DNA of 64,000 nt from a bacterium UBP2_UBA2255 (GCA_002347565.1 DDXR01000049.1:42302-106301); one strand, 5' to 3'; shown: positions 10,743 through 64,000, counted from the first letter of the stretch. Program-made: numbers and translations. Notes: generated by a model not told the origin, from the sequence alone.

Positions 10743-10870
10743 TACACCCATAAAAAGCCCACGTCATTGTTCTGGAATACGTGCCCGTTTGGGAAATCTG
10801 CAAACGACACGAGCGAAGATACCTATGGTTTTTCGGCTGTAGTGCGCCACCAGCCTATAGCAGTATAGCT

Positions 10871-12153: not shown

Positions 12154-12504
12154 CGAACGATTATCCCATCAGCTCAGGAACACCCGGGGAAAGCCATTTA
12201 CGGTCAGTTCGACTTCTCTCGATGACCGGGAATACGCACCCCGAGCGGAGTCGAGAAATGCAGTAACGTGCCATCCTGAATATATGGGATAATCACTCAA
12301 TAGAGATATGCCACCCGCAGGCTATTTCTTCTGTTCGCCGCGGCGGCATCGGATGGTCGGTTTGATGAAGAAGCACGAGAGTTACAACTCAATGAACTAC
12401 AATTCTCTTGATATCCGGTTGCAGGTTATACATAGCGCCACGAAATAGTAATGACAAGCTAGTTCTATAAAAGAAATGCAGTTTAAAAAAGTGATGGTGC
12501 CGGC

Positions 12505-13602
12505 ATGATCGCCTTTGACGCAAGAATGTCAGAGCGTTCTGGTATCGGTTCGTATGTGCGAAACTTGTTGGCACAATTCGCGGCAATGGACCGGCCGCCA
12601 AAGCTGACCGTGATCGGTGACCAAGATATCCACCGCTACTGGCGGCGACCGATTGTCTGCCGTAGCCCGATATACAGTATTCAGGAGCAACTGTCTATTC
12701 CAGTGGTGGCGCATAATTGCAACGTCTTTCATGCGCCGCATTACAACGCCCCGCTGCTGTTCCGCGGCCGTCTGGTCGTGACTATCCACGACCTCAATCA
12801 TCTCACGTTTTATGATGAATTGCCGACCATCGCCCACAAACTGTATGCCCGTCTGATGATGACGTTAGCCGTCCGGCGGGCCGACCACATCATGACGGAT
12901 TCCGAGTGGACACGGCGCGACCTCCTCCGACGATGGCCCGACGCAGCGACGAAGACGGAGGTTGTACATAACGGTATTGATCCACAATTGCGACGGACGA
13001 TCGAACCGGCTGTGCCAGCGAAATATGGCATCACCAAACCATACGTTCTTTATCTGGGACTGCTGAAACGGCATAAAAACATCACGCGACTGATCGAAGC
13101 TTTCCTGGCGGCCCAAGACGAATTGAAGGGTGAGTTCCAATTGGCCATCGCGGGAGATCCGACCAGCGACGATATCGGCCTTCGTGATTTTATCGTGCGA
13201 CGGCGATCATCCGAAATCGTACGGTTGATAGGATTCATTGCGCCGGGTGACATCGCCCCGTTGTATAGCGGCGCGAAGGTGTTCGCCTTCCCATCGCTGG
13301 CCGAGGGCTTCGGCTTGCCGCCGCTGGAGGCGATGGCCTGTGGCACGCCGGTGATCGCCAGCAACGCGAGCTGCCTTCCCGAGGTCCTGGGCGGCGCACC
13401 GCGTTTCTTCGACCCCCGCGACGTGGCTGACATGGCGGCGTCGATCGTGTCCGCCGTCCGGGACGAAGCCTGGCGGTTCGCAGCCATCGAGCGCGGCTAT
13501 CGCACCACGGCCAAGTACCGGTGGGAGGATACGGCGCTGGCCTGCATACGCGCATATAGTGCAGCCGATACGACGGTTGCCAATGGGAGTGGTGGGCGGT
13601 GA
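12505..13602 (+). CDS. glycosyltransferase family 4
   Basis: GT4 C-terminal motif (FPSLAEGFGLPPLEAMACGTPVIASN). Confidence 0.8.
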   Translation: MIAFDARMSERSGIGSYVRNLLAQFAAMDRPPKLTVIGDQDIHRYWRRPIVCRSPIYSIQEQLSIPVVAHNCNVFHAPHYNAPLLFRGRLVVTIHDLNHLTFYDELPTIAHKLYARLMMTLAVRRADHIMTDSEWTRRDLLRRWPDAATKTEVVHNGIDPQLRRTIEPAVPAKYGITKPYVLYLGLLKRHKNITRLIEAFLAAQDELKGEFQLAIAGDPTSDDIGLRDFIVRRRSSEIVRLIGFIAPGDIAPLYSGAKVFAFPSLAEGFGLPPLEAMACGTPVIASNASCLPEVLGGAPRFFDPRDVADMAASIVSAVRDEAWRFAAIERGYRTTAKYRWEDTALACIRAYSAADTTVANGSGGR

Positions 13603-14747
13603 CCCGCGAACGGAACAACCGGGTTTATAAATGGCTGGACGGACACATTGGACCGCCGATCATCGCGATGAAGGCAGCGCTTGATATGCGGCAACGGCCT
13701 TGCGATCAGCGTGTGTCCAACCGATCACCCAGGATCGCATTGGTGAAAACGGAATCCATAGGCGATACGTTGCTGACCGAACCGCTGATTAAAAGCATCA
13801 AACATGTCCATCCCGCGGGTGCGATCACGTACATCTGCATGTCGAACAACGTTGACGCGGTCAGGGGTCTGGATGGGATCGATGAGATCATCATCTTTGA
13901 TCTCGGGGCACCGCTACGATCGCTGTGTCGATTGACGAGGCTGCGACCGTTCGACGTGGTGATTGACTGCGGTTCCTGGGCCAGGATCAACAGCGTGATT
14001 GCAACCACAGTGCCCGCCGCATGCCGTGTGGGCTTCCGTACCGCCAGCATGCACCGGCACTATGCCTACGATATCGTCGTTGACCATGATTCCGGCATCC
14101 ATGAACTTGACAACTATCGCAACCTGCTACGGGCCGCCGGCATCACCCCGCAGCGGTCGGCACCGCGCTATGTCATCGGCCGGCAAGCTGCCGGGGCACC
14201 GGTGTTCCCGTTGCCGTCGCTGGGTGAATACGTCGTCCTGCACATTCATCCCGGCGGCGCCCAGCGGCATCTGAAGTGCTGGCCGGATGCCCAATGGATC
14301 GAACTGGGGAGGCGTCTGATCGGCGCCGGGATCCGCATCTATATTAGCGGCGGTCGCGGCGATGCCGTTGGTGCAGGGCGCATTGCGAACCTGATCGACG
14401 GCGTCCACTGCGCGTCGCTGGCTGGTCAGCTGTCTCTGGATCAAACCGCGCAGCTGATCGCGGGATCCCGTCTGCTGGTCACCGTTGACACCGGTATCAT
14501 GCACCTCGGAGCAGCCGTCGGGGCGAATGTCATCAGTCTACATGGACCGACCTCGCCACGACGGTGGGGCGGCATCGGCCGATCGGTCACGCCAGTTTGC
14601 ACGACGGCCAGCTGTGCCCCATGCATCAACCTGGGCTTCGATTCACCCTGTCGGCACGGCGGCTGCATGGACCTCATCACTGTTGATGCCGTGTTCACTC
14701 AGGCAGCCGAACACCTGAAACGCACCGGACGCGGACGGCCATCGTAG
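13599..14747 (+). CDS. glycosyltransferase family 9 (heptosyltransferase-like)
   Basis: GT9 features: KTESIGDTLLTEPL, ISGGRGD, VTVDTGIMHLGAAVG, LHGPTS; start uncertain (GTG 13599 overlapping, or downstream ATG 13668). Confidence 0.65.
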   Translation: MTRERNNRVYKWLDGHIGPPIIAMKAALDMRQRPCDQRVSNRSPRIALVKTESIGDTLLTEPLIKSIKHVHPAGAITYICMSNNVDAVRGLDGIDEIIIFDLGAPLRSLCRLTRLRPFDVVIDCGSWARINSVIATTVPAACRVGFRTASMHRHYAYDIVVDHDSGIHELDNYRNLLRAAGITPQRSAPRYVIGRQAAGAPVFPLPSLGEYVVLHIHPGGAQRHLKCWPDAQWIELGRRLIGAGIRIYISGGRGDAVGAGRIANLIDGVHCASLAGQLSLDQTAQLIAGSRLLVTVDTGIMHLGAAVGANVISLHGPTSPRRWGGIGRSVTPVCTTASCAPCINLGFDSPCRHGGCMDLITVDAVFTQAAEHLKRTGRGRPS

Positions 14748-47984: not shown

Positions 47985-48014
47985 TTGACAGCACCAGCGG
48001 TTTTACGTTACAAT
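47985..48014 (+). promoter_or_regulatory. sigma70-like promoter TTGACA-18nt-TACAAT upstream of tRNA-Leu
   Basis: TTGACA 47985-47990, TACAAT 48009-48014. Confidence 0.45.
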
Positions 48015-48077: not shown

Positions 48078-48164
48078 GCCGGGATGGTGGAATTTTGGTA
48101 GACACGTACGTTTGAGGTGCGTATGGCGCAAGCCATGTGGGTTCAAGTCCCACTCCCGGCACCA
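48078..48164 (+). tRNA. tRNA-Leu (anticodon GAG), class II with long variable arm
   Basis: Manual fold: 7-bp acceptor GCCGGGA/TCCCGGC, 3-bp D stem, anticodon stem TACGT/GCGTA with loop TTGAGGT (U33, G37), variable arm ATGGC-GCAA-GCCAT, T arm GTGGG-TTCAAGT-CCCAC, discriminator A, encoded CCA. Confidence 0.8.
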
Positions 48165-48270: not shown

Positions 48271-49233
48271 ATGACCTTCGTTGACCTGATCATCGAGCGC
48301 CATTCGTGCGACCACGCGCTGCAGCAGGCGGTCGCCCTTATCAACGCGCGGCGGTACCGCCAGGCCATCCCCATTCTGGATGCGCTCCACCGCCGAGAGC
48401 CGCAGGGCTGCATCCAGAGCAGCGAGGTGGTGCAGTTCTACCTGATCGAGTCGCGCATGGCGCTGGCCCGCCGGGCGGCGCAGCGACGGGCGCTGGCCGA
48501 GGCGATCCGCGAGTACGGCGCGGCCGCGAAGCTGGCGCCGCGGTATGCCGACCTGCGCCATGCGCTGGGGATGATCGAGTACGAGCGGAGGCGCTACGCG
48601 GCAGCCGCCGCCGAGTTCCGCCGGGCGCTGCGGATCAACCCCCGGTACCAGGCGGCGCGCGTCCAGCTCGGGCTGACGATGCTCCGGCAGCGCCGGTACC
48701 GGGCCGGCCTGCGCCTGTTCGCCGGCCTGGCGCGCGACTGCAGCCTGGTCGACCAGGAGCGATACGACCGCGCCGTGGCCGCGGCGCAACGCCGCCGGTA
48801 CCGGGAGGCCGAGGGCGGTTTCGCGGCGGCGTTCCGGTCGAGGCCCGACCGGGGAAGGGCCCTCTGCGCCATGGGCCAGGACGCCTATCGGGAGAGCCGT
48901 TACGACGAGGCCATCCGCCATTTCCGGCAGGCGCAGCGGCTGGCACCGGGCTATGCGGATGTTTACAACAATCTCGGCGCCTGCTACAGCCGGAAAGGGA
49001 ACTGGGGCAGGGCGGCCCGCTGTTTCGCCATGGCGGCATCGCTGGCTCCGCGCTTCACCCGCGCCTGGCTCAACCTGGCGTATGTCTGTGACCGGCTGGG
49101 CGACCGCGAACGGGCGGCGAGGGCGGCCCGTAGCGCCCTGCGGCTGGACCCGGCGAACAAGCTGGCGACCGCCATCCTGCGCCGCGACGGCGCAACCAGG
49201 ACGGCGGCACTGAAGGACCGGCAGCATGGCTGA
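48271..49233 (+). CDS. tetratricopeptide-repeat protein
   Basis: Multiple TPR-like A/R/Y-rich helical repeats. Confidence 0.65.
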   Translation: MTFVDLIIERHSCDHALQQAVALINARRYRQAIPILDALHRREPQGCIQSSEVVQFYLIESRMALARRAAQRRALAEAIREYGAAAKLAPRYADLRHALGMIEYERRRYAAAAAEFRRALRINPRYQAARVQLGLTMLRQRRYRAGLRLFAGLARDCSLVDQERYDRAVAAAQRRRYREAEGGFAAAFRSRPDRGRALCAMGQDAYRESRYDEAIRHFRQAQRLAPGYADVYNNLGACYSRKGNWGRAARCFAMAASLAPRFTRAWLNLAYVCDRLGDRERAARAARSALRLDPANKLATAILRRDGATRTAALKDRQHG

Positions 49234-49882
49234 GTTCAAGGATTACTACGCAGTCCTGGGTGTCGGCCGCACGGCCGCGGAGCAGGAGATCAAGGCCGCC
49301 TACCGGCGGCTGGCGGTGAGGCTCCATCCCGACAAGAACCCGGCCGAGAGCAAGCAGGGATTCGCCAGCAGCCAGTTCCAGGACGTCAACGAGGCCTATC
49401 ATACCCTGGTCGACCGCAGAAAGCGAGACGCCTACAACAAGCAGCTGCTGGCCCGCCAGACCGGCATGTCCGACGGTCACACGTACGAGGCCAACCAGGC
49501 CGAAATGGTGTACCGCCAGGGGGTCAAGGCCTACAACGAACAGAATTTCAAGCGGGCGGTGGAGTACTTCAAGGCCGCAGTCAGGCTCAATCCCAAAAAG
49601 GCGTCCTACTACGACCGGCTGGGGATCGCCATCGTGAAATCCGGCGGATCGATCGAGGACGCCCGCGCCCAGTGCGAAAAGGCCCAGCAGATGGAGATGT
49701 ACAACCCCGAGCACTACCTGTCGATGGGCATCATCTACCAGCTGGCCGGGCTGGGGGACAAGGCCCGGGAGCAGTTCCGGGAGGCCCTCAAGTGGGATCC
49801 CGCCAACGCCGCCGCCAAGCAGCGCCTGGAGCAGCTCGGCCGGAGCAAGAAGGGGTTCTTCGGCAAGATGTTCGGCGGGTGA
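49226..49882 (+). CDS. J-domain (DnaJ-like) protein with TPR-like C-terminal region
   Basis: DYYAVLGV...YRRLAVRLHPDKN J-domain with HPD motif. Confidence 0.8.
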   Translation: MAEFKDYYAVLGVGRTAAEQEIKAAYRRLAVRLHPDKNPAESKQGFASSQFQDVNEAYHTLVDRRKRDAYNKQLLARQTGMSDGHTYEANQAEMVYRQGVKAYNEQNFKRAVEYFKAAVRLNPKKASYYDRLGIAIVKSGGSIEDARAQCEKAQQMEMYNPEHYLSMGIIYQLAGLGDKAREQFREALKWDPANAAAKQRLEQLGRSKKGFFGKMFGG

Positions 49883-49940: not shown

Positions 49941-50318
49941 ATGGACATGGCGAACTACGAGCAGCGGTTGAAGGAGCTGGTTGACAGCATCCCGGGTGCG
50001 GCGTCGGCCAACCTGACCGGCATCGACGGCATCGGGATCGCGGCCAGCAGTCTCGATCCGACGCTGGACCCGACGCTGGCCGACGCCGAGTTCGCCACCA
50101 TGCTGGCCACCGCCAACCGCGCCGCGGGCAACCTGCAGGTGGGTGACATCTCCGAGCTGATCTTCGCCACCGACAGGATCATGATCATCCTCAAGATGGT
50201 GGGCCAGGATTTCTACCTAGCGGTGGGGCTGCCGGCGGCCGCCGGCAACCTGGGGATGGCCCGGCTACAGATGCGCTGGGCGGTGGACGATTTCGCCAAG
50301 ATGCTGTACGCCGCGTGA
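49941..50318 (+). CDS. roadblock/LC7 (MglB-like) domain protein
   Basis: ~125 aa with alternating hydrophobic pattern (ISELIFATDRIMIILKMVGQDFYLAVGL) typical of roadblock/LC7 fold. Confidence 0.6.
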   Translation: MDMANYEQRLKELVDSIPGAASANLTGIDGIGIAASSLDPTLDPTLADAEFATMLATANRAAGNLQVGDISELIFATDRIMIILKMVGQDFYLAVGLPAAAGNLGMARLQMRWAVDDFAKMLYAA

Positions 50319-50328
50319 GGAGGCTTTT

Positions 50329-50673
50329 GTGACGAACCACCAAAATGGATACCACGACCAGGCGTCCGAGATCATCAGGTCGCTGGCCGAGCGCGAGCGC
50401 GAGCTGTCCCGTTCGCTGGAGTCGGCCGAGGCCGAGGCCCGGCAGGCGATCGAGCGGGCCGAGGCGGCTGCGTCCGGCATTCGCGCAGCCGCTGCCGAGT
50501 CCGAGCGCCGCCTGGCGGCCGAGCATGCCGGGAGCTTGGCGGCGCTGGCAGATCAGATCGCCGCTGCCCGGGCGGCCCGGGCCGGGCAGGAGGCCGAGGC
50601 CCTGGCGGCCGCTGCCGCGGCCCGGATGGAGGCGGCCGTGTCGGAAGTCGTCAGGCGCGTGCTGCCGGAGTAG
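50329..50673 (+). CDS. coiled-coil protein, probable A/V-type ATPase peripheral-stalk subunit (G/H-like)
   Basis: 114-aa Ala/Glu/Arg-rich predicted coiled coil immediately upstream of subunit I, matching position of subunit G in Thermus-type operons; GTG start with GAGGAGG RBS. Confidence 0.5.
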   Translation: MTNHQNGYHDQASEIIRSLAERERELSRSLESAEAEARQAIERAEAAASGIRAAAAESERRLAAEHAGSLAALADQIAAARAARAGQEAEALAAAAAARMEAAVSEVVRRVLPE

Positions 50674-50679
50674 CCGCCG

Positions 50680-52578
50680 ATGATCGTCCCCATGCTCAGG
50701 GTGCTGGTGGCTGGTCCCAAACCGCTGATGGCCGCCGTGATCGAGACCATCCAGCGGCAGGGGCGGGTCCACATCGCGGCCGCGCGGGGCCAGGAGCAGG
50801 GCGTTTGCGCCGGCGGGCTGGCCGAGGCCGAGGCCGGGCGCCGGCAATCGGTCGAACGGGCCGCTTCCGAGATCGACGGCCTGCTGGCCCTGCTTGGGTT
50901 CCGGGGAAGGCCGGCACGACAGACCGGGGAACCGGACTGGGGCGCGCTGGAGGCCGGGCTGCGCGAACGCCAGGAGCGCGTGCGGGCGCTGGTGCGGCGG
51001 CGGCTGGAGCTGGAGGATGAGCTGGCGCTGATAGCCAGTTACCAGCAGGCGTTCGAGGCGCTCTCGCCGCTGCTGTCGCGGCTGGAGGGGAGCGCCAGGC
51101 TCCGGGCCTTCGGGTTCATCATCAAGGGGACCGATGCCACGGCTGCCGAACCGCTGCGCCGCGAGCTGGGCAGGGCCACGAGCGGCCGGTGCGAGGTGTT
51201 CGCCCAGGCGCTGGGCGACGGCCGGGTCGCCGTGCTGGCGGCGCACCACGCCGGGGACACCGACCGGGTGCGGGGGTTCTTCGCCAAGCTTGGCGTCAGC
51301 GAGCTGAAATTGCCGTCGACCGTTACCGGCCTGCCGATGGCAGAGGCGGTGCGGCAGCTCAAGGGAAAGCTGCGCGACCTGCCCGGGCAGATCCGGGCCG
51401 CGCAGGAGGATATCGGCAGCCTGGCCGGGCAGTGGGGGCCGGAGCTGGCGGGGCTGCGCCTGCTGGCGGGCGACGTGCTGGCGAGGCTGGCCGTGCGGGC
51501 CCAGGTCGGGGAAAGCCGGTTCACCTTCCTGCTGCAAGGTTACCTGCCGCAGGACGACCTGCCCGGCCTCCGCGACGCCCTGCGCGCCGCCTACCAGGAC
51601 CGGGTCACGGTGCAGACGATAGAGATCGGACACCGCGACGCGGCGCAGGTCCCGGTGATGCTGAAGAACAACCGGCTGGTCAAGCCGTTCGAGATGATGC
51701 TGTCGATCTTCAACCCGCCGCGCTACGGGACTGTCGACCCCACGCCGTTCATCGCGTTCTTCTTCCCGCTGTACTTCGGCTTCATCGTCGGCGACCTCGG
51801 CTACGGCCTGGTGATGCTGGCGCTGGCGCTGGCGCTGCGCTGGAAGCTCGGTCAGCGGCCGTTGGTCAGGCCGCTGACCACCATTTTCGCGCTGTGCGCC
51901 GCCTGGACCGCCGCGTTCGGCGTCGTCTACGGCGAGCTGTTCGGCGACCTGGGCGAGCACATGCACTGGCTGCATCCCATGGCCGACGCGGTCAACCGCA
52001 TGAGGCCGGAGTCGCTGATGCCGCTGTTCTGGTCATCGATCGCCGTCGGCGCGTTCCAGGTGATGGCCGGGTTCGGGATCATGCTCTACCAGGGTCTGAG
52101 GCATCGCGACCGGCACCATATCCTTGAGCCGCTGGCCTTCGTCATCGGCATCGCCGGCGTGGCCGGCTTCGCAGCCTCCTGGATGTTCGGGGTCATCCCG
52201 TCCTCCTTCATGGCGCCGTCGCTGGCCCTGCTGGTCGCCGGCGCCGGCCTGCTTGGGTGGCTGGCCGGCGTGGCAGGGCCGATCGAGATCTTCGGCGCGG
52301 TCGGCAACATTCTGTCCTTCGCCCGTTTGTTCGCGATCGGATTGTCCGCGGCATATCTGGCGTATGCGGCCAACCTGATCGGCCGCACCATCGGCGGCAT
52401 TCCGGGGATTCTGGTGGCGGCCCTGGTAGTGCATCCGCTGTTCTTCGCCCTGGGCCTGATCAGCCCCATCATGCAGTCGTTCCGTCTCCAGGTCGTGGAG
52501 TTCTTCACCAAGTTCAAATACCACGATTATCCCGGCAAACAATACAAACCATTCAAAACCACAGGAGAGACCCCATGA
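50680..52578 (+). CDS. atpI: A/V-type ATP synthase subunit I (a-subunit)
   Basis: ~630 aa: N-terminal hydrophilic coiled-coil half, C-terminal 7-8 TM half. Confidence 0.8.
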   Translation: MIVPMLRVLVAGPKPLMAAVIETIQRQGRVHIAAARGQEQGVCAGGLAEAEAGRRQSVERAASEIDGLLALLGFRGRPARQTGEPDWGALEAGLRERQERVRALVRRRLELEDELALIASYQQAFEALSPLLSRLEGSARLRAFGFIIKGTDATAAEPLRRELGRATSGRCEVFAQALGDGRVAVLAAHHAGDTDRVRGFFAKLGVSELKLPSTVTGLPMAEAVRQLKGKLRDLPGQIRAAQEDIGSLAGQWGPELAGLRLLAGDVLARLAVRAQVGESRFTFLLQGYLPQDDLPGLRDALRAAYQDRVTVQTIEIGHRDAAQVPVMLKNNRLVKPFEMMLSIFNPPRYGTVDPTPFIAFFFPLYFGFIVGDLGYGLVMLALALALRWKLGQRPLVRPLTTIFALCAAWTAAFGVVYGELFGDLGEHMHWLHPMADAVNRMRPESLMPLFWSSIAVGAFQVMAGFGIMLYQGLRHRDRHHILEPLAFVIGIAGVAGFAASWMFGVIPSSFMAPSLALLVAGAGLLGWLAGVAGPIEIFGAVGNILSFARLFAIGLSAAYLAYAANLIGRTIGGIPGILVAALVVHPLFFALGLISPIMQSFRLQVVEFFTKFKYHDYPGKQYKPFKTTGETP

Positions 52579-52919
52579 AGAAGTTCCTGGCGATCGTGAT
52601 GCTGTCCGTCATCGCGATGACCTTCGCCTCGGTGGCGTTGGCCCAGCATGCCGCACCGGCCGCGGAACAGCAGAAGGCGGACTCCCCGGCCAAGCCGCTG
52701 GACAACATCGTGATCTGGAAGGCCCTCGGCGCGGCGCTGGCCATCGGCGCCGCCGCTTTCGCCACGGCCTGGGCCCAGAGCAAGATCGGATCGGCCGCGG
52801 CCGGCGCCATCGCCGAGAAGCCGGAGATCGGCGGCGTGATGATCGTGCTGGAGGCCCTGCCCGAGACCATCATCATCCTGGGCTTCGTGATCGCCATCAT
52901 GATCGTGGGGATGAAGTAG
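52575..52919 (+). CDS. atpK: A/V-type ATP synthase proteolipid subunit K (c-subunit), single hairpin with N-terminal signal-like segment
   Basis: Gly/Ala-rich TM hairpin (GAALAIGAAAFATAWAQSKIGSAAAGAIAEKPE / LEALPETIIILGFVIAIMIVG) with conserved Glu; ATGA overlap with atpI. Confidence 0.75.
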   Translation: MKKFLAIVMLSVIAMTFASVALAQHAAPAAEQQKADSPAKPLDNIVIWKALGAALAIGAAAFATAWAQSKIGSAAAGAIAEKPEIGGVMIVLEALPETIIILGFVIAIMIVGMK

Positions 52920-52968
52920 CCGCTGCGCCGGGCCCCGGAACCGGCGGCATCTGGCACGATCTGACGAT

Positions 52969-53541
52969 ATGAATTCCGAACTACTGAAGGTCATCGAGGC
53001 CGAGGCCGCGGCCGAGCGCCAGCGGATCACGGACGCGGCCCGGGAGCGGGCCGGCGAGATCATCTCCTCGGCCGAGACCGCGGCCCGGCGGCTGCGCGAC
53101 AGCGGCGAGCGCGCCCGGGATGAGCAGGAACGCGCGGTCAGGCTCAAGACGGCCGCGGCCGCGGAACTGGCGGCATCGGCGCTGCGGCTGGAAGCCAAGC
53201 GCCGGGTGCTGGATTCGGTGTTCGACGCCGCCCGTCGGCGTCTGGCGCAGCTGTCCGGCCCGGAGTACCGGCGCGTCCTGAAGTCGCTGATCGCCGAGGC
53301 GGCGGCGGGCTTCGATGGGCAGTTCCGGCTGCGGGTGCGCCGGCAGGACGCCAAGCCGGCCGCCGAGATACTGAAGGAGTTGGGTCTGGAGGCGGAGGCC
53401 GAGGCCGAGGGCGCGGATGACGGCGGCGTGGTCGCGTCCGACCCCCAAGGCCGGATGATGGTCTGCAACAGGTTCGCCGACCGCCTGGAGCGCGCCCGTC
53501 CCGAGCTGCTGCCCGCGCTGTCGCGCATCCTGTGGGGATGA
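52969..53541 (+). CDS. atpE: A/V-type ATP synthase subunit E
   Basis: 190-aa charged helical N-terminus plus C-terminal globular part, operon position. Confidence 0.7.
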   Translation: MNSELLKVIEAEAAAERQRITDAARERAGEIISSAETAARRLRDSGERARDEQERAVRLKTAAAAELAASALRLEAKRRVLDSVFDAARRRLAQLSGPEYRRVLKSLIAEAAAGFDGQFRLRVRRQDAKPAAEILKELGLEAEAEAEGADDGGVVASDPQGRMMVCNRFADRLERARPELLPALSRILWG

Positions 53542-53544
53542 GCG

Positions 53545-54603
53545 ATGCCGTCGGACTACGGGTACATCAACGCCCGGATCAAGGGATGGCACAGCCGCCT
53601 GCTGACGGCCGGCGCAGTGACCGAGATCGCCGACCTGCCTGATTTTCCGGCTTTTCTGAAATGGATGGCCGCCGGTCCGTACGCGGCCGATTGGCAGCTG
53701 GCCCGTGCCCGGTTCGAGGGATTGGAAGCGGTCGAGCAGGCGCTGGAAGCGAATTTCGGCCAGACCACCCGGCGGTTGTTGGCGGTCTCGGACGGCGCCC
53801 CGCGCCGCCTGATCGGGATCATGCTGCGGCGCTGGGACCTGGCCAACCTCAAGACGGTGGTCCGTGGCATCGCCCGCCAGCACGGTTCGCAGGAGATCGC
53901 CCGCAACCTGTGGCCGGCCGGCAACCTGGTGATGGTCCGCCTGAGGGAGCTGGCCCAGCAGCGCGACCTGCGCGGCGTGGCGGACGTGCTGGCCACCTGG
54001 CGCGACCCGCTGGCGCAGCCCCTGATTGAATGCCTGGCAGGGTTCGACCGGGACCACGACCTGGTGCCGGTCGAACTGGCGCTGGACCGGTTCCATTTCC
54101 GCGACTCGCTGCGGCGGCTGCGAGGCCCGGAGAGCAACCGCAGCCTGATGGCGGGCCTGCTGCGGCGGGAGATCGACCTGGCCAATGCCAAAACGGCCAG
54201 GAGGCTGGCCGGTCAGGCCGCGGATCAGGCGCGGGATCCCCGGGCCTATGTGATCGACGGCGGCGAAGTCATCGATGCCGAGGCCGTGGCCGAATTGCTC
54301 GATCCCAGGACGCGCAGCCGCCGGCTGCGTGCCCTGCGGGCATCGCCCTACCACGGCTATCTGGCCGGCACCGGCGACCCGGTCCGGCTGGAGGATGAAC
54401 TCGACCATTCGTTCTGGCGCCACTGCGCCCGGCTGTACCGGGCCCGGCCGCTGGCGATCGACGTGGCCGTCGGCTTCATCTGGCGGAAACAGTACGAGCT
54501 GGTCAACCTGCGCCTGCTGGCCCGGTCCAAGTTCTACGGGCTGCCGCCGGAAGAGATACGCAGCCAGCTGTTCCTGGACGTTGCGGGCGGCCGCTGCGGC
54601 TGA
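53545..54603 (+). CDS. atpC: A/V-type ATP synthase subunit C (d-subunit)
   Basis: YGYINARIKG N-terminus and all-helical ~350 aa like Thermus AtpC. Confidence 0.75.
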   Translation: MPSDYGYINARIKGWHSRLLTAGAVTEIADLPDFPAFLKWMAAGPYAADWQLARARFEGLEAVEQALEANFGQTTRRLLAVSDGAPRRLIGIMLRRWDLANLKTVVRGIARQHGSQEIARNLWPAGNLVMVRLRELAQQRDLRGVADVLATWRDPLAQPLIECLAGFDRDHDLVPVELALDRFHFRDSLRRLRGPESNRSLMAGLLRREIDLANAKTARRLAGQAADQARDPRAYVIDGGEVIDAEAVAELLDPRTRSRRLRALRASPYHGYLAGTGDPVRLEDELDHSFWRHCARLYRARPLAIDVAVGFIWRKQYELVNLRLLARSKFYGLPPEEIRSQLFLDVAGGRCG

Positions 54604-54675
54604 CGACGGCTGGCGGTTTCCGCGCCGCATCCCGGGCATCCACCCAACCCCACCACGACAGCGAAAGGGGACGGT

Positions 54676-55884
54676 ATGAACCGCATCGCACTCGGCGCCA
54701 TTGCCCTGGTCCTGACGGCCGGACTGGCCGGCGCGGCGCCGGAAGCGCCGCCGGCCGCGCCGCCCGGTGAGGCGTCTGCCGCCGGACTGACGGCGGTCGA
54801 CACTCCCAACGACGAGGGGCGGTCGATCACCGTCACCTGGGCCCGGTCGCCCCGGGACATCGGCGATGCCGCCGTGTTCAAGGGCTACCAGATCCTGCGG
54901 GCCGACCACGCCGATGGGCCGTTCGCCGAGGTCGGGTTCGTCATCGGCGGCAAGACGGAGTTCCGCGACAACGTGGCCGAGGGCGCGGCGCACTGGTACC
55001 GCGTGCGCGCCGTGGCCGGCAGCGATTCATCGGAAACGGGGACGGCCGGTCCGGTCCGGGCGTCGGCCCAGTGGTTCGACGCCGGCCGCAGCAACGTGCT
55101 GATCGTGACCGTCCTGCTGGCGTTCCTGATGATCTGGTACATCGAGCGGGCCAAGAAGGGCGAGGAGCTGTTCATCCGGAAGATCCACGGCCTGGACGCC
55201 ATCGACGAGGCGGTGGGGCGGTCCACCGAGCTGGGCAAGCCGGTGCTGTTCTCGTTCGGCCTGGGCGAGATCAAGGACATCGTGACCGTGGCCGCGCTGT
55301 CAATCCTGCGCCAGGTCGCGGTGCGCTGCGCCCAGCACGGCACCGAGCTGCTGGTCCCGAACTGGGACCCGCTGGTGATGGCCGCGGCCCAGGAGACCAT
55401 CCAGCAGGCCTACTCCGAGCCGGGCCGGCCCGACCTGTACAAGGAGGGCAACGTCAGCTTCCTGACCTCGGATCAGTTCGGGTACGCCGCGGGCGTCGAC
55501 GGCATGATGATCCGGCAGAAGCCGGGGGCGGTGTTCTTCATGGGCTACTTCTATGCCGAGGCCCTGCTGATGTCGGAGACCGGCCACTCGGTGGGCGCGA
55601 TCCAGATCGCCGGGACCACGGCGGTCACCCAGCTGCCGTTCTTCATCGCCTCCTGCGACTACACCCTGATCGGCGAGGAGATGCTGGCTGCCAGCTGCTA
55701 CCTGAAGCGCGATCCCCAGCTGCTGGGGTCGATCAAGGGCGAGGATTTCGTCAAGGCCATCCTGATCGTCGGGTTCGCGGCGCTGGCCGTGGTCGGCACC
55801 GCCGGCGCCCTGCTGGCCGGCGCCGGGCGTCCCTGGCTGTCCGGCGTGTTCCAGGCCATCATCCAGTGGTTCGTGACCGCATGA
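54676..55884 (+). CDS. hypothetical bitopic membrane protein: signal peptide, FN3/Ig-like exodomain, TM helix, ~270-aa C-terminal domain
   Basis: Cleavable signal (ALVLTAGLAGAAP), beta-rich segment (SITVTWARSP...HWYRVRAV), TM (VLIVTVLLAFLMIWYI), C-terminal domain ending in second hydrophobic segment; no family recognised. Confidence 0.5.
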   Translation: MNRIALGAIALVLTAGLAGAAPEAPPAAPPGEASAAGLTAVDTPNDEGRSITVTWARSPRDIGDAAVFKGYQILRADHADGPFAEVGFVIGGKTEFRDNVAEGAAHWYRVRAVAGSDSSETGTAGPVRASAQWFDAGRSNVLIVTVLLAFLMIWYIERAKKGEELFIRKIHGLDAIDEAVGRSTELGKPVLFSFGLGEIKDIVTVAALSILRQVAVRCAQHGTELLVPNWDPLVMAAAQETIQQAYSEPGRPDLYKEGNVSFLTSDQFGYAAGVDGMMIRQKPGAVFFMGYFYAEALLMSETGHSVGAIQIAGTTAVTQLPFFIASCDYTLIGEEMLAASCYLKRDPQLLGSIKGEDFVKAILIVGFAALAVVGTAGALLAGAGRPWLSGVFQAIIQWFVTA

Positions 55885-55921
55885 CGCGCGCGTCACTGAT
55901 CGAAATGAAGGAGCGGCGCCC

Positions 55922-56554
55922 ATGAAAAAAGAGATCCCATTGGCCATCACCTTCCTGACCGGCCTGATCATCGTGGTCACGTTCTTCATCCCCCACCAGC
56001 CGCTGGGGACGATGCAGCAGCGGCTGCTGATCTGGTACTCGATCGTGCTGGGGTTCACCATGCTGCTGGGCGTGGACAGCTTGCTGCGCAGCAACCTCAA
56101 GCGGCTGGTGGGGCGCACCCCGGGATGGCCGTACGCCGCAGTGCTGCTCGCCGGGTTCGCGTTCACCCTGGCGGCCGGGATCTACAACTGGGCCACCACC
56201 AGGTCGCTGCTGACCCTGGGGTCGCCGTTCATGTTCGTCTACACCTTCGTGATCGTGCCCCTGCAGGCGACCATGTTCGCGGTGCTGGCGTTCTTCATCG
56301 CGTCGGCCGCCTACCGCGCCTTCCGGGCCCGCACCCTGGAGGCGACCCTGCTGCTGGTCACCGCCGCCATCGTCATGATCGGGCGGGTGCCGGTGGGGGC
56401 CGAGCTGTGGGACAAGCTGCCGGTCCTGGCCGACTGGATCATGGAGGTCCCCCAGATGGCGGCCAAGCGGGGCATCGTCATCGGCGTGGCCCTGGGGACC
56501 ATCGCCATGTCGCTGCGGGTGATCCTGGGCCTGGAACGGACCTACCTGTCATGA
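55922..56554 (+). CDS. hypothetical polytopic membrane protein (~6 TM)
   Basis: Hydrophobicity pattern; no family recognised. Confidence 0.5.
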   Translation: MKKEIPLAITFLTGLIIVVTFFIPHQPLGTMQQRLLIWYSIVLGFTMLLGVDSLLRSNLKRLVGRTPGWPYAAVLLAGFAFTLAAGIYNWATTRSLLTLGSPFMFVYTFVIVPLQATMFAVLAFFIASAAYRAFRARTLEATLLLVTAAIVMIGRVPVGAELWDKLPVLADWIMEVPQMAAKRGIVIGVALGTIAMSLRVILGLERTYLS

Positions 56555-56576
56555 AGCGCAGCAGAGGAGAACGACG

Positions 56577-57398
56577 ATGAGATTCTTCGAGCGGATCGCC
56601 GCCATCGACCGGCGGCTGATCTACCTGGCGCTGGCGCTGTCGGTGCTCATCCCCCTGCTGTTCAAGATGGTGCTCCCGACCCGCGTCTCCGAGCCGGTGC
56701 GGGCCGCCTACCGGTCGATCGATGACCTGCCCGAAGGTTCCGTGGTGATGATCTCGGTCGACTACGACGCCTCGTCGGCGCCGGAGCTGCAGCCCATCTA
56801 TCTCGGCATCCTGCAGCACTGCTTCGCCAAGAAGCTCAAGGTGCTGGTGCTGGGGCAGTGGGTGATGGGGACCCCCTTCGGCGAGCTGGGCTTGGGCCGG
56901 ATCGCGCCGCTGTACGACGCCGTCTACGGCGTCGACTACGTCAACCTGGGGTACCGGCCCGGCTACCGCGCCCAGATGGTGGGGCTGGGCCGCGAGATTC
57001 GCGACTTCTTCGCGGTCGATTCCCGCGGCATCACCCTCGACAGCTTGCCGATGATGGCCGGGGTCCACAATTACAACCAGATCGACCTGCTGGTGGGTCT
57101 CGAGGCCGGCCAGGCCGGCGACGAGTGGATCCAATTCGCCGGCGCCCGCTACGGCGTCGACATCGTGATCGGCGCCACCGGCGTGGTGGCCCCCGACAAG
57201 TTCCATTACCTGCAGGCCCGGCAGATCCGCGGGCTGATCGGCGGCCTGCAGGGCGCGGCCGAGTACGAGACCCTGATCGGCAAGCCGGGCGCCGCCATCG
57301 CCGGCATGGTCGCCCAATCCTGGGCGCACCTCCTGCTGCTGGCGTTCATCGTCCTGGGCAACGTCGGATATTTCGTGATGCGGAGGGCCAAGCCATGA
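56577..57398 (+). CDS. hypothetical membrane-anchored protein (N- and C-terminal TM helices, central soluble domain)
   Basis: TM at residues ~14-32 and ~245-265; no family recognised. Confidence 0.5.
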   Translation: MRFFERIAAIDRRLIYLALALSVLIPLLFKMVLPTRVSEPVRAAYRSIDDLPEGSVVMISVDYDASSAPELQPIYLGILQHCFAKKLKVLVLGQWVMGTPFGELGLGRIAPLYDAVYGVDYVNLGYRPGYRAQMVGLGREIRDFFAVDSRGITLDSLPMMAGVHNYNQIDLLVGLEAGQAGDEWIQFAGARYGVDIVIGATGVVAPDKFHYLQARQIRGLIGGLQGAAEYETLIGKPGAAIAGMVAQSWAHLLLLAFIVLGNVGYFVMRRAKP

Positions 57399-58018
57399 CG
57401 CAGATCATCGGCACCTGGATCGCGGCCGGGCTGACCCTGGCCATCTTCTCCTTCCTCTACAAGGACAACCCGTTCTACAAGGTGGCGGAGCACCTCTACG
57501 TCGGTGTCTCGGCGGCCTACGCCGTGCTGTACGCCTGGGCCAACGACGTCTACCCGATGCTGGTCGAACCGATGTTCCTGGGCCGGGGCGCCGTCACCAC
57601 GGCCGACCGCTGGATCCTGCTGGTGCCGCTGCTGTTCGGCCTGATGATGCTGGCGCGGTGGGTGCCGAGGATCGCCTGGCTGTCGCGCTGGTCCATCGCA
57701 CTGACGGTAGGCATCGCGGCGGGCCTGGGCATCACCGGCCAGATCCAGGGCATTCTGCTGCCGCAGGTGGCCGGCACCCTGGTGCCGCTGACATCGGCCA
57801 ACAACGTTCTGATGGTGGCCGGCGTCATCGCCACGCTGGTGTACTTCTATTTCTCGATCGCCCAGAAGGGCGCGGTCAAAGTGGGCAGCCGGCTGGGCAT
57901 GGTGTTCATCATGGTCGCGTTCGGCGCCTCGTTCGGCTATACGGTGATGGCCAGGATCTCGCTGTTGATCGGGCGCCTGCAGTTCCTGGTGTTCGACTGG
58001 CTCCACGTGGTCAAGTGA
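57398..58018 (+). CDS. hypothetical polytopic membrane protein (~6 TM)
   Basis: ATGA overlap with upstream gene; hydrophobic throughout. Confidence 0.5.
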   Translation, partial: TQIIGTWIAAGLTLAIFSFLYKDNPFYKVAEHLYVGVSAAYAVLYAWANDVYPMLVEPMFLGRGAVTTADRWILLVPLLFGLMMLARWVPRIAWLSRWSIALTVGIAAGLGITGQIQGILLPQVAGTLVPLTSANNVLMVAGVIATLVYFYFSIAQKGAVKVGSRLGMVFIMVAFGASFGYTVMARISLLIGRLQFLVFDWLHVVK

Positions 58019-58052
58019 CGGCCGCCCCAACCGTCGAGAGGAGGATCCTGCG

Positions 58053-58355
58053 ATGAACGACCTGACCGCTGTCAAGGGGGTGCGGGCCTGGGCGGTGTTC
58101 GCCAACGACGCGCCGGTGGAGGGCGAGGCCAAGGGCGAGCTGGGGGACAAGGCGGGCGAGATCGAGCAGTTCTGGGTGAACGCGGCCTCGGTGATCGCCA
58201 GCAACTTCCGGCTGGGCCAGCTGCGCGAGGTGGCCGTGGCCGGCCCCGACCGGCAGGTGCTGATGCTGCTGGCCGGCGACCGGACCGTGGTGTGCGAGGT
58301 CGATCCCGCCGCCGACTGGAAGGCGCTGGCGGGCGAGATCCGGAGGAAGATGTAG
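58053..58355 (+). CDS. small soluble protein, possibly roadblock/LC7-like
   Basis: 100 aa; alternating hydrophobic pattern (VRAWAVFAND..., VLMLLAGDRTVVCEV) reminiscent of roadblock fold; tentative. Confidence 0.4.
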   Translation: MNDLTAVKGVRAWAVFANDAPVEGEAKGELGDKAGEIEQFWVNAASVIASNFRLGQLREVAVAGPDRQVLMLLAGDRTVVCEVDPAADWKALAGEIRRKM

Positions 58356-58356
58356 C

Positions 58357-58905
58357 ATGGCACTTGCAGACGCGATAGCTGCTGGCAGGGTGGCGGGCCT
58401 CAAGGGCGCGTTCCTGGTGCCGGCCGGCGGCGACATCCAGGCGCAGGGCTGCGACCAGTCGGCCGCGACCCCCAGCGCCGAGCTGGCCCGCCAGATCCAG
58501 GACATCGTCGGCCTGCCGACGCTGGACACCGTGTGGCTCGCCGCCGAGGGCGGCATCGCCGGCCTGCGGCTGGCCGCCGGGGCGACGGCCGGGGTGCTGC
58601 TGGGGCCGGACGGGGCGGCCGGGCCCGCCCGCAAGCTGCTGGACGCGTTGCTGGCAGCCCCGGCGGCCGGAACGGGCGGCGGCGACGCCATCAACCAGAT
58701 CCGCAAGGTCGCCACCGAGTACCTCACCGACTTCGCCGAGACCGCGCTGATGATCCAGATCAAGCAGTCGGGTCTGGACGAGAAGAACCCCAGCCCCGAA
58801 AGCCTGGCCAAGCTGGCCGGCGGCCTGGAGAAGGCGGCGCTGATGATCATCGGCCCCTCGCGAGCCAAGGAGATGGGCGAGAGGCTGAAGAAGGCGATAT
58901 CATGA
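58357..58905 (+). CDS. hypothetical soluble protein (Gly/Ala-rich N-terminal half, possibly roadblock-like; helical C-terminus)
   Basis: Starts 2 nt after the preceding stop; no family recognised. Confidence 0.4.
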   Translation: MALADAIAAGRVAGLKGAFLVPAGGDIQAQGCDQSAATPSAELARQIQDIVGLPTLDTVWLAAEGGIAGLRLAAGATAGVLLGPDGAAGPARKLLDALLAAPAAGTGGGDAINQIRKVATEYLTDFAETALMIQIKQSGLDEKNPSPESLAKLAGGLEKAALMIIGPSRAKEMGERLKKAIS

Positions 58906-58998
58906 TGCGGGACGCGGATCGACGCAGATCATATCGATCGGTTGTCCCGGCCGTCCGAACAGCGGATGTCTGCGTGAATCAGCGTCCGGAAGTGTCGG

Positions 58999-59322
58999 AT
59001 GAATAGGCTGGCCGTCATCACCGACAGCGGCACCGCCACCGGGTTCCGGATGGCGGGGGTGGACACCTTCGAGGTCGCCTCCGAACCGCAGCTCCAGGCC
59101 AAGCTGGCCGAGCTGATCGCGACGGGCGACTACGGGCTGATCGCCGTCAACCAAGACCTGGCGGCGGACCTGGGCGAGGAGGTCGACCGCATCATGAAGA
59201 ATCGCGCCCTGCCGGTGATCCTGCCGTTCCCGGTGCCCAAGGGCGGGACGGTGGAGAGCGGCGAGGCCTACCTCAATAAGCTGGTCAAGGACGCCATCGG
59301 GTTCTACGTCAAGCTGAAGTGA
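58999..59322 (+). CDS. atpF: A/V-type ATP synthase subunit F
   Basis: 107 aa with VITDSGTATGFRMAGV and LPVILPFP motifs matching Thermus/Enterococcus subunit F. Confidence 0.8.
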   Translation: MNRLAVITDSGTATGFRMAGVDTFEVASEPQLQAKLAELIATGDYGLIAVNQDLAADLGEEVDRIMKNRALPVILPFPVPKGGTVESGEAYLNKLVKDAIGFYVKLK

Positions 59323-59336
59323 CCGCGGTGAAATCG

Positions 59337-59807
59337 ATGACGTTCCTGGGATACCTCTTCGTCGCGTGCTGCTTCGCCGGTTGCAGCAAGGACCCGGCCG
59401 CGCCTGGAGCGACCCCCACGTTGGACACTGCCACGCTGACGGATTCCCTGCATGCAGTCGCCATCGGCATGTCGCGCCGGGAATGCCAGATCGACATCCA
59501 GCTGGCGTATTCGATCAATCGTTACCCGCTGATCAAGGCCGGCTCCGACTCGGATATGGTGACCGTCTACCTGCACAACGGCAAGGCGATATCGACCGAC
59601 ACCCCATACAACGCTGGCGCGATCGTCAGGCAGGATTACCGGAACGGTGACCTCCTGGCGAGATCGGTGCAAGGGGGATGGGGCTCGGACACGACGGCAC
59701 ACGTCCTGATGGCTTCCGATACCCTGACCACCATCGACAGTGCCACGGTCGACGTGTGGTGGTGGTTTGATGGCGGCCGCCAGGTGCACCACCGGCTTTT
59801 CCCGTAG
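59337..59807 (+). CDS. hypothetical lipoprotein
   Basis: Signal peptide with FAGCS lipobox; no family recognised; ORF extends to GTG 59319. Confidence 0.45.
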
Positions 59808-59851
59808 ACCACAGCACAGCAACCATCGAATATATCCTTCGGGGAGAACCT

Positions 59852-61594
<1,743 letters not shown>

Positions 61595-61680
61595 CTGCCG
61601 ACGAACGGTATCCACTATATCGTAGACGCTATCCAGTAGAGGATACTGAGTAGTGAATACTGAATAGGGAAGGCAACAGT

Positions 61681-62595
61681 ATGCGTTTAGTCACCCGCTC
61701 CGATTTCGACGGTTTGATCTGCGGCGTCCTGCTGCAGGAGGCCGGCATCGTCGACTCGTCCCTGTTCGTCCACCCCAAGGACGTCCAGGACGGCAAGGTC
61801 GAGGTCACGGCCAACGACGTGCTGGCCAACGTGCCCTACGCCAAGGGCTGCGGCCTGTGGTTCGACCACCACATGTCCGAGGAGGAGCGCGCCGCCTTCC
61901 CCCACGACTTCAAGGGCGCGTCCCTGCCGGCGAAGAGCTGCGCCCGGGTGATCTACGAGTACTACGGCGGCCGGGAGAAATTCCCGCGGTTCGAGGACAT
62001 GCTCAAGGCGGTGGACAAGTCCGACTCCGGCGGCCTGTCGCTGGAGGAGGTGGCCCAGCCCACCGGCTGGCTGCTGCTGGCCTTCCTGATGGACCCGCGC
62101 ACCGGCCTGGGCCGCTTCTCGGACTACCGCATCAGCAACCTGCAGCTGATGCAGGACCTGATGGAGCGATGCCGCACCATGGCGATCGCCGAGATCCTGG
62201 AGCTGCCCGACGTCACGGAGCGGATCAGGCGCTACCGCGAGTCGGAGTGGCTCTACAAGGAGATGATCAAGAGCAACGCCAAGGTCCACGGCAACGTGCT
62301 GGTGGTGGACCTGCGCAACGTGGAGAACATCGCCACCGGCAACCGCTTCGTGGAGTACGGCATGTTCCCGGCCATCAACATCTCGGTGCGGGTGATGTGG
62401 GGCGTCAAGAAGCAGAACGTGGTGTTCGCCGTGGGACACAGCATCCTCAACCGCACCTCCAAGACCAACGTCGGCTCGCTGATGCTGAAGCACAACGGCG
62501 GCGGCCATCCCAAGGTGGGCACCTGCCAGGTGCCGACCGACCAGGCCGACGCGGTGCTGGCCGAGCTGGTCAGGAAGATGAACGCCGACGGCTGA
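61681..62595 (+). CDS. DHH-family phosphoesterase (DHH + DHHA1-like, GGGH motif)
   Basis: DFDGLICGVLL (DxD), LWFDHHM (DHH), MLKHNGGGHPKVGTCQV (GGGH) motifs. Confidence 0.7.
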   Translation: MRLVTRSDFDGLICGVLLQEAGIVDSSLFVHPKDVQDGKVEVTANDVLANVPYAKGCGLWFDHHMSEEERAAFPHDFKGASLPAKSCARVIYEYYGGREKFPRFEDMLKAVDKSDSGGLSLEEVAQPTGWLLLAFLMDPRTGLGRFSDYRISNLQLMQDLMERCRTMAIAEILELPDVTERIRRYRESEWLYKEMIKSNAKVHGNVLVVDLRNVENIATGNRFVEYGMFPAINISVRVMWGVKKQNVVFAVGHSILNRTSKTNVGSLMLKHNGGGHPKVGTCQVPTDQADAVLAELVRKMNADG

Positions 62596-62607
62596 GGGGC
62601 CTCCCGA

Positions 62608-62946
62608 ATGACCGGTCCAGACCACGATACTTTCCGCACACTGTACAAGATCGTCGGGGGCCTCGATAAAAAATTCCCCGGCGGGAACGACCCGTTCCGG
62701 ATCTTGTCCCGCCTGATGGAGGAATCCGGGGAACTGGCGAGCGAGATACACCACTTCGAGGGCCTGAAACGCCATCGCCGGCAGGACCCGCCGGACAAGG
62801 GCCATCTCGCGAAGGAGTGCATGGACATCTTCACCGCGGTGCTCCATATCGCGAAGCACTACGGGATCGAAAAAGAGCTGTCCGCCCGGATCGACAAGCA
62901 CTACCGCATGGTCATTTCCGAGGGATTGGTCGAACCTCTTGAATGA
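62608..62946 (+). CDS. MazG-like nucleotide pyrophosphohydrolase (small all-alpha NTP-PPase)
   Basis: EExGELA.E motif (LMEESGELASEIHHFEG) and downstream acidic helix (LAKECMDIFTAVLHIAKHYGI). Confidence 0.6.
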   Translation: MTGPDHDTFRTLYKIVGGLDKKFPGGNDPFRILSRLMEESGELASEIHHFEGLKRHRRQDPPDKGHLAKECMDIFTAVLHIAKHYGIEKELSARIDKHYRMVISEGLVEPLE

Positions 62947-63061
62947 TGTATGTTTTCAGGCTGAACCATGACCACGATACTATGCGGCATTCTATTTCTG
63001 ACGAGCTATCGTTGCATCGCAGCGTAGCGATCGACTGAACGACTACAGATTTGGAACTACA

Positions 63062-63508
63062 ATGGCACCGTTCAACAAGACCAAGAAATTCGGCAAGCCG
63101 TCCTTCAGCCGGCCGGACAGCCGGGCCCCGCGGAAGTTCGGCGCCGGACCGCGCCCGGCGGGCGGGCCCAAACGCTTCGGCGGGGGGCCGCGCGCAGCGG
63201 GCGCCCGGACGTTCGGCAAGCCGCCCTTCGACAAACAGCTGTTCAAGGCCACCTGCGCCAGCTGCGGCAATCCCTGCGAGGTGCCGTTCCGGCCGTCCGG
63301 CGAGAAGCCGGTCTACTGCCGCGACTGTTTCCGCCGGCAGGAGGGCGACGGCCCGGCACGCCCCGCGTTCCGCCGCGACGACGCGCCCCGGCCGATGCGC
63401 CCCGCGTTCCGCCGTCCCGAGCCGGCCGGCCCCGGCAACCTGGAGAAGGAGCTGGAGCGCATCAACCTCAAGCTGGACCGGATCCTGCGGGCACTAGAAG
63501 GCAATTGA
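63062..63508 (+). CDS. Arg/Gly-rich basic protein with C4 zinc ribbon (CxxC-x17-CxxC)
   Basis: N-terminal repeats FGKP/FGAGPRP/FGGGPRA, CASCGNPCEVPFRPSGEKPVYCRDC zinc ribbon, C-terminal helix. Confidence 0.5.
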   Translation: MAPFNKTKKFGKPSFSRPDSRAPRKFGAGPRPAGGPKRFGGGPRAAGARTFGKPPFDKQLFKATCASCGNPCEVPFRPSGEKPVYCRDCFRRQEGDGPARPAFRRDDAPRPMRPAFRRPEPAGPGNLEKELERINLKLDRILRALEGN

Positions 63509-63524
63509 TTCATAAGGAACCGAC

Positions 63525-64000
63525 ATGGACCTGACCACCAAGAAATACCAGAGCATCTCCTACGTCTCCGGGCCGCTGTTGTTCGTCGACAACGCCAAGG
63601 GCCTGTCCTACGGCGCCATCGTCGAGATCGAGCTGCCCGACGGGTCGACCAAGGGCGGCCAGACCATCGAGGTCTCGGAGAAATACGCCGTGATCCAGGT
63701 GTTCGAGGAGACCCGCGGCCTGGACCTGGCCAAGAGCTCGGTGTCCCTCAAGGAGGACGTGGCCCGGATCCCGGTGAGCCGCGACATGATCGGCCGCCGC
63801 TTCAACGGACTGGGCGAGCCCATCGACGGCCTGCCGCCGATCGTGCCCGAGCAGCGCCTGGCCATCATCGGCGAGCCGATGAACCCCACCTCGCGGGCCA
63901 AGCCCGAGGCCTTCATCCAGACCGGCATCTCCACCATCGACGGCTTCGCCACCCTGGTGCGCGGACAGAAGCTGCCGATATTCTCCGGCGCCGGCCTGCC
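63525..64000 (+). CDS. atpB: A/V-type ATP synthase subunit B, N-terminal 158 codons (3' end outside window)
   Basis: Manual translation MDLTTKKYQSISYVSGPLLFVDNAKGLSYGAIVEI...GQKLPIFSGAGLP closely matches V-type B subunits; not in supplied ORF table because it runs off the window. Confidence 0.9.
   Translation, partial: MDLTTKKYQSISYVSGPLLFVDNAKGLSYGAIVEIELPDGSTKGGQTIEVSEKYAVIQVFEETRGLDLAKSSVSLKEDVARIPVSRDMIGRRFNGLGEPIDGLPPIVPEQRLAIIGEPMNPTSRAKPEAFIQTGISTIDGFATLVRGQKLPIFSGAGL

Follow-up and report, generated by a model that had tools for sequence, protein, structure and literature searches.

Few gene arrangements in prokaryotes are as strongly conserved as rotary ATPase operons, and it is established for these operons that the stoichiometry of the subunits normally depends on one transcript. 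In Thermus thermophilus the genes of the V/A-ATPase stand in the contiguous order G-I-L/K-E-C-F-A-B-D. A non-ATPase gene is found in the ntp operon of Enterococcus hirae, where ntpJ, the gene of a K+ transporter, lies within the V-ATPase operon, at its end. Here we consider a stretch of 64,000 nucleotides from the bacterium UBP2_UBA2255 (GCA_002347565.1, DDXR01000049.1:42302-106301), called the window below, with positions counted from its first nucleotide. The window has about 68% G+C, and its homologues are labelled Candidatus Edwardsbacteria. Its last part carries a V/A-ATPase operon of the Thermus type, into which ten non-ATPase genes are set at three junctions. In our opinion, this operon probably became a mosaic before the sampled Edwardsbacteria diverged, and it holds autonomous modules that would be co-expressed with the ATPase.

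All eight ATPase subunits from G to B were identified in the order G-I-K-E-C-F-A-B on the + strand, seven of them (G, I, K, E, C, F and A) by Pfam families. These are the peripheral-stalk subunit G (50329-50673; V-ATPase_G_2, PF16999, E=3.7e-16), the a-type stator subunit I (50680-52578; PF18670, PF01496), the c-ring proteolipid K with an N-terminal presequence (52575-52919; PF00137), subunit E (52969-53541; PF01991), the d-type subunit C (53545-54603; PF01992, E=7e-55), subunit F (58999-59322; PF01990, E=4.5e-20) and the catalytic subunit A (59852-61594; PF00006, PF16886, PF22919, PF02874). Subunit B, recognised by its translation, is cut by the end of the window, which leaves the N-terminal 158 residues (63525-64000). 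Subunit D stands downstream of B in the relatives L081, L083 and L084, and for the window strain it lies beyond the window. The subunit set is thus that of a Thermus-type operon, but its contiguity is broken by six genes between C and F (named here X1-X6), one lipoprotein gene between F and A and three genes (Y1-Y3) between A and B. An earlier sequence-only reading had described the same order with three interruptions, and this is borne out by Pfam and the open reading frames, as is the common orientation of the extra genes, all on the + strand. It had counted eleven extra coding sequences; six, one and three make ten. An ATGA overlap that it had placed at 57398 is real (57395-57398, the start of X4 and the stop of X3), and its 2-nt gap at 58357 proved to be a gap of 1 nt between X5 and X6.

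The arrangement was compared in ten other Edwardsbacteria contigs (L081, L082, L083, L084, L086, L001, L092, L094, L095 and L096) and in short fragments, and the interleaved order is repeated in every contig with enough context. The conserved core consists of TPR, DnaJ-TPR and Roadblock-like genes followed by G, I, K, E, C, X1-X6, F, A, Y1 and B. It starts at 48271, upstream of position 50329, which had been given as the start earlier. The first gene encodes a TPR-repeat protein (48271-49233, +; Pfam TPR families), homologues of which stand at the same position in L081, L082, L083, L086, L092, L094 and L095. The second product combines a J-domain (DnaJ) with TPR (49226-49882, +; Pfam DnaJ, E=9e-22) and is syntenic in the relatives at 59-62% identity. 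The third, Robl0 (49941-50318, +), is a probable Roadblock/LC7-domain protein (Robl_LC7, 22.1 bits with a cut-off of 23, E=1.3e-4), also syntenic at 56-72% identity, and its gene ends 10 nt upstream of subunit G.

Identity to the window reaches 92-96% for B and 85-86% for A, 77-81% for the syntenic Y1 and 65-83% for X1-X4, followed by 51-58% for I, 44-51% for C, 38-46% for E and 32-36% for G. X1-X6 and Y1 keep their junctions even where the C subunit has fallen to 44-51% identity. The G+C content at third codon positions (GC3) of X1-X6 and Y1 is 0.92-0.98, like that of the ATPase genes, and 0.88-0.98 over the conserved genes as a whole. Because the order is shared and the identity of the inserts is high, it may be concluded that the arrangement is old and that the inserts are under strong constraint. 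The nearest C subunit outside the lineage comes from Trueperaceae, of the Deinococcus-Thermus group, at 36% identity, and the nearest operons outside Edwardsbacteria, L087 (Trueperaceae) and L088, have the compact order G-I-K-E-C-F-A-B-D, so the insertions are regarded as derived. The earlier judgement that the arrangement is not a textbook one therefore holds, as it is real and unusual. The synteny comparison which that reading had named as a check showed X1-X6 and Y1 to occupy identical junctions in all Edwardsbacteria operons seen. Absence of the inserts from all relatives, which it had named as evidence to the contrary, does not apply to X1-X6 and Y1 and largely applies to the lipoprotein, Y2 and Y3.

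Two further features were observed in the relatives. A fourth interruption, beyond the end of the window in the present strain, is formed by a gene for 265-291 residues that lies between B and D and has no match beyond a weak one to FlgT_N (L081, 19924-20799; L083, 20045-20842; L086, 20600-end). In L082 (16429-21179), no B gene was found in the 3.8 kb of sequence downstream of Y1, where GIY-YIG and N6_Mtase/Eco57I genes stand instead.

The first four genes between C and F encode membrane proteins. X1 (54676-55884, +) is predicted to comprise a signal peptide, an external FN3 domain, a transmembrane helix, a cytoplasmic DUF6754 domain and another transmembrane helix; its match to DUF6754 (PF20539) is very strong (E=6e-106, 353.7 bits with a gathering cut-off of 27), and FN3 has matches in the PDB. 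X2 (55922-56554, +) and X4 (57395-58018, +) are polytopic membrane proteins by transmembrane prediction, X2 belonging to no Pfam family. X3 (56577-57398, +) has a Rossmann-like alpha/beta domain, predicted to be periplasmic, between two transmembrane helices. No match to a Pfam, NCBIfam or PDB sequence family was found for X2, X3 and X4, and the Pfam scan of single members of their alignments gave nothing consistent. When profiles of X1, X2, X3, X4 and X6 were searched against PDB sequences, only the FN3 domain of X1 gave a match, and hhalign found no internal paralogy between X1 and X3 or between X2 and X4. In the literature, no paper was found that mentions DUF6754, and none that pairs Edwardsbacteria with a V-type ATPase.

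When one genome per species was scanned, relatives of X1 were found in at least 592 stretches, and the following statistics refer to the best 80 of these loci, with ATPase genes sought within 10 kb. The window and nearly all 80 loci have the series X1-X2-X3-X4 on one strand, X2 always standing after X1. The hosts belong to WOR-3, Zixibacteria, Poribacteria, Ignavibacteria, Eisenbacteria, Coatesbacteria and Stahlbacteria, and 27 of the 80 loci carry two or three tandem cassettes. ATPase A and B genes are absent within the search distance in 79 loci, the exception being L001, another Edwardsbacteria contig. All-against-all clustering of neighbouring open reading frames revealed no partner common to more than 14 of the 80 loci, only lineage-specific sets. 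The numbers of homologous clusters are nearly equal for X1 (at least 2727) and X3 (2672). Because of this spread, the ATPase-free loci and the tandem copies, X1-X4 is considered to be an autonomous widespread module and not a component of the ATPase. Tandem X1-X4 arrays of Zixibacteria, Ignavibacteria, Eisenbacteria and Coatesbacteria adjoin several recurring genes (L015, L016, L037, L040, L041, L044, L046, L058 and L064, among other loci), namely those for a MutL/GlmL-like ASKHA ATPase of about 610 residues (PF13941), a 375-residue protein without assignment, small membrane proteins and GcvP subunits.

The other two proteins encoded between C and F are soluble. X5 (58053-58355, +) is small and possibly Roadblock-like, to judge from its hhalign comparison with Robl0 (E=0.006-0.018), and alignments indicate that the N-terminal half of X6 (58357-58905, +) is Roadblock-like and that its helical C-terminal domain is conserved. 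Neither showed a direct match to Robl_LC7 (PF03259) in the Pfam scan. Among 20 aligned proteins, namely X6 relatives, X5, two longer X5 homologues (X5L) and Robl0, this family was touched at E <=0.1 by three, with Robl0 the best. The X5L proteins are encoded after PATAN genes in loci of the WOR-3 type, and their C-terminal helical domain resembles that of X6 (hhalign E=0.0076), whereas X5 is without such a domain.

X6 represents a narrow family, with 15 clusters at E <=0.001 among 1.84 billion representatives. A metagenome scan with the X6 alignment gave 43 loci, and those with enough context show three architectures only. Architecture A is the Edwardsbacteria ATPase operon. Architecture B, present in at least 14 long loci and in L017, L018, L035 and L048, consists of X1-X4, PATAN/DUF4388, X5L, X6L, two small transmembrane proteins, ExbB, ExbD, ExbD, TonB and a lipoprotein. 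In architecture C, which has no X1-X4, PATAN, X5L and X6L adjoin ruvB and an MCP gene. The extended module X1-X6 is therefore seen only beside ExbB-ExbD-TonB or within a rotary ATPase operon, both of which are driven by ion-motive force. The triad PATAN (DUF4388)-X5L-X6L at ruvB was observed in L119 (8011-11226), L115, L121 and L126, and in L087 (97-2161), from Trueperaceae, ruvB likewise has a PatA_N gene as its immediate neighbour.

Y1 (61681-62595, +), in the slot between A and B, is a DHH/DHHA1 phosphodiesterase of the PggH type. It aligns from end to end with PggH of Vibrio cholerae (PDB 7D62, E=5e-98), including the DFDG, DHH and GGGH motifs, and Pfam alone gave a weak DHHA1 match. By this alignment Y1 is a full-length PggH homologue, and its pGpG/nanoRNA phosphodiesterase activity is putative. 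PggH itself is a pGpG-specific phosphodiesterase in c-di-GMP turnover (PMC8861645).

The remaining inserts are variable. The lipoprotein between F and A (59337-59807, +; lipobox FAG/C, GC3 0.82) is missing or replaced in most relatives, with a homologue only in L092 and L094. Y2 (62608-62946, +; GC3 0.79) is MazG-like (PF03819, 21.9 bits with a cut-off of 22) and has no homologue in the relatives. Y3 (63062-63508, +), a basic zinc finger protein with the pattern CxxC-x17-CxxC (PF23477, E=1.2e-16, 60.5 bits with a cut-off of 27; TIGR04272, 58.6 bits with a cut-off of 36), is not kept at its position in the relatives. Hidden Markov model searches of the inserts in Pfam and NCBIfam, another check that the earlier reading had named, thus gave only DUF6754, weak DHHA1 and MazG matches and the zinc finger. 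A BamE-like lipoprotein, small membrane proteins and a 302-residue secreted protein are found instead in the same slots of relatives. In L001 (4437-5780), the gene of a 303-residue secreted protein stands between F and A, and the last codons of F (KLVKDAIGFYVKLK and the stop) are duplicated after this gene, just upstream of A, which looks like an insertion footprint. Judged by such comparisons, the F/A and A/B junctions gather short-lived cargo, namely lipoprotein, MazG-like and zinc-finger genes.

The signals around these genes bear on the question of a common transcript. Gaps between genes range from -4 to 115 nt across the block, with GGAG-like ribosome-binding sites upstream of most genes; those at the borders C/X1, X6/F, A/Y1 and Y2/Y3 measure 72-115 nt. 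The signal scan of 47-64 kb found the module borders free of terminator-like sites; its sole match of this kind on the + strand is a weak hairpin of five pairs within X4. The sole sigma-70-like match in 47-64 kb lies at 47985-48014; inside the block there is none, and the Bacteroidetes-type motif TAnnTTTG does not occur in the operon, in both cases with the reservation that the promoter consensus of this phylum may differ. The sigma-70-like match is situated just upstream of a tRNA gene (48078-48161, +), which stands between an RNase E/G gene and the TPR gene. Co-orientation alone is weak evidence for an operon, because all credible genes of the entire window are on the + strand. The earlier statement that the inserts are very likely co-transcribed with the ATPase is accordingly softened: tight spacing, overlaps with translational coupling, the lack of internal terminator and promoter matches and the kept junctions make co-transcription of the block plausible, and the single transcript would probably start at the TPR gene (48271). 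Several independent co-oriented units (G-C, X1-X6, F-A, Y1-Y3 and B-D) are rather unlikely. The location of the whole window on one strand, the wider gaps at the module borders, the AT-rich A/Y1 spacer with a hairpin (z = -2.5) and the doubtful validity of the sigma-70 and Bacteroidetes consensus for this phylum are consistent with such units, but the borders are without terminator-like sites and promoter matches of these two types, F would be left isolated in a very small unit, alone or with the lipoprotein, and the stoichiometry of ATPase subunits normally needs a single transcript.

Summarizing the data, we prefer to see here a Thermus-type operon that turned into a mosaic early and expresses autonomous modules together with the ATPase. 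The C/F junction would house a six-gene module, in which X1-X4 are predicted to form a four-protein inner-membrane complex with FN3 outside, the Rossmann-like domain in the periplasm and DUF6754 in the cytoplasm, and X5 and X6 may act as small soluble cytoplasmic regulators. If the block is co-transcribed, the modules would be co-expressed with the enzyme. Gene content and neighbourhoods indicate that X1-X6 and Y1 are autonomous modules, which are ATPase-free in other phyla, and not ATPase subunits; because their positions are kept across the lineage, the membrane module and Y1 are taken as old passengers rather than ATPase parts. An ion-motive-force-dependent envelope machine is favoured because X1-X4 has no recognisable NTPase and both partners of the extended module are driven by this force. 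As a weak inference, the functional logic may be co-expression of such a machine with the enzyme that makes or uses the force, and X1-X6 may be tied functionally to membrane energetics, in line with the coupled membrane system that the sequence-only reading had suggested. Several points weigh against this picture. The matches of X3 are to generic Rossmann folds only. In the AlphaFold2 model of X1, FN3 alone is confident, and the DUF6754 core has a predicted local distance difference test score (pLDDT) below 50, so the biochemical role of X1-X4 could not be inferred. In most phyla X1-X4 adjoins neither an ATPase nor ExbBD, the Roadblock/LC7 assignment of X5 and X6 is weak and only suggestive, and the gaps of 72-115 nt could harbour promoters of another type. 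Positional conservation, moreover, is no proof of coupling, because Y1 is equally fixed and has no evident link with the ATPase.

For the latter reason hitch-hiking remains a strong rival, to which we give a substantial, though clearly lesser, chance. The genes would have landed by accident in permissive junctions of a strongly expressed essential operon and been frozen there, since their removal would disrupt it, and X1-X6 would have no functional link with the ATPase. Such a course of events agrees with the presence of Y1, Y2, Y3 and lipoproteins without a plausible ATPase role, with the turnover of the F/A and A/B contents between relatives, with the duplicated end codons of F in L001 and with the ATPase-free occurrence of X1-X4 in other phyla. 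However, X1-X6 are fixed in all of the ten or more sampled operons under a constraint stronger than that on several ATPase subunits, and the sole other setting of the extended module is an ion-motive-force machine, ExbBD-TonB. The sequence-only reading had also suggested accessory subunits or assembly factors; that X1-X6, perhaps with the upstream TPR, DnaJ and Roadblock genes, play this part as lineage-specific proteins is highly improbable and disfavoured. Their central place in the operon, between C and F, their tight spacing, their retention throughout Edwardsbacteria and the J-domain and TPR proteins upstream, which could be chaperones, would suit it, but the X1-X4 cassette is spread over at least 592 species, lacks an A or B gene within 10 kb in 79 of the 80 loci and forms tandem arrays of two or three paralogous cassettes, relatives of X5 and X6 are found in non-ATPase contexts, and the closest V/A-ATPases (L087 and L088) do without such genes. 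As for Y1, it is a PggH-type phosphodiesterase instead of an accessory subunit. It is also quite improbable that X1-X6 is a novel Roadblock-controlled, ion-motive-force-driven envelope machine which docks physically or regulatorily on the V/A-ATPase in Edwardsbacteria.

Elsewhere in the window, an island of low G+C content at about 5000-14000 (0.46-0.59 versus about 0.68) carries genes for Wzz/GNVR and for a Polysacc_synt flippase and is probably a horizontally acquired surface-polysaccharide cluster.

Compared with known systems, the enzyme itself is closest to that of Thermus thermophilus, with the same subunit set and order and, among solved structures, the closest c subunit. Subunit K has a hydrophobic N-terminal presequence, and its best solved relative, subunit K of the Thermus-type V/A-ATPase, has a similar presequence and identical Q...PET residues. 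The solved Thermus-type chains of 99-102 and 73-74 residues fit a cleaved leader. A reading of the c subunit as Na+-binding was dropped; the Q...PET residues say nothing about Na+ coupling, because they are the same in the Thermus-type subunit, and the Thermus-type enzyme is proton-coupled. The operons of Thermus and Trueperaceae are contiguous, whereas the window has ten foreign genes in three junctions and the relatives have an extra gene between B and D. In the ntp operon of Enterococcus hirae, a gene for membrane transport that is foreign to the ATPase is already known to share the transcript of a bacterial V-type ATPase; however, ntpJ is terminal and belongs to a known transporter family, and here the foreign genes stand between ATPase genes and have no assigned function. 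Y1 resembles Vibrio cholerae PggH over its full length and differs by lying between the genes of ATPase subunits A and B.

Loci of the WOR-3/Stahlbacteria type have homologous X1-X4 followed by homologous X5 and X6, as in the window. They differ in having PATAN, the pair of small transmembrane proteins and ExbBD-TonB, all absent from the window, which has a rotary ATPase instead, and their X5L carries the C-terminal helical domain that X5 is without. These two settings of X1-X6, beside ExbBD-TonB or in the V/A-ATPase operon only, lead to a testable hypothesis of ion-motive-force dependence and offer a first clue to the function of the DUF6754 cassette, an uncharacterised and large membrane system of at least 592 species. 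In eukaryotes, the V-ATPase-Ragulator assembly contains the Roadblock-domain LAMTOR proteins, and in the window Robl0, and possibly X5 and X6, are likewise encoded with a V-type ATPase. The homology is limited to a possible fold, and no GTPase is encoded nearby; if docking of X1-X6 on the ATPase were true, it would be a prokaryotic counterpart of the V-ATPase-Ragulator (Roadblock) partnership. As a Thermus-type V/A-ATPase the enzyme is ordinary, and the architecture of its operon is a new variant, whose interleaved version extends over the phylum and indicates that even rotary ATPase operons can take in and fix passengers.

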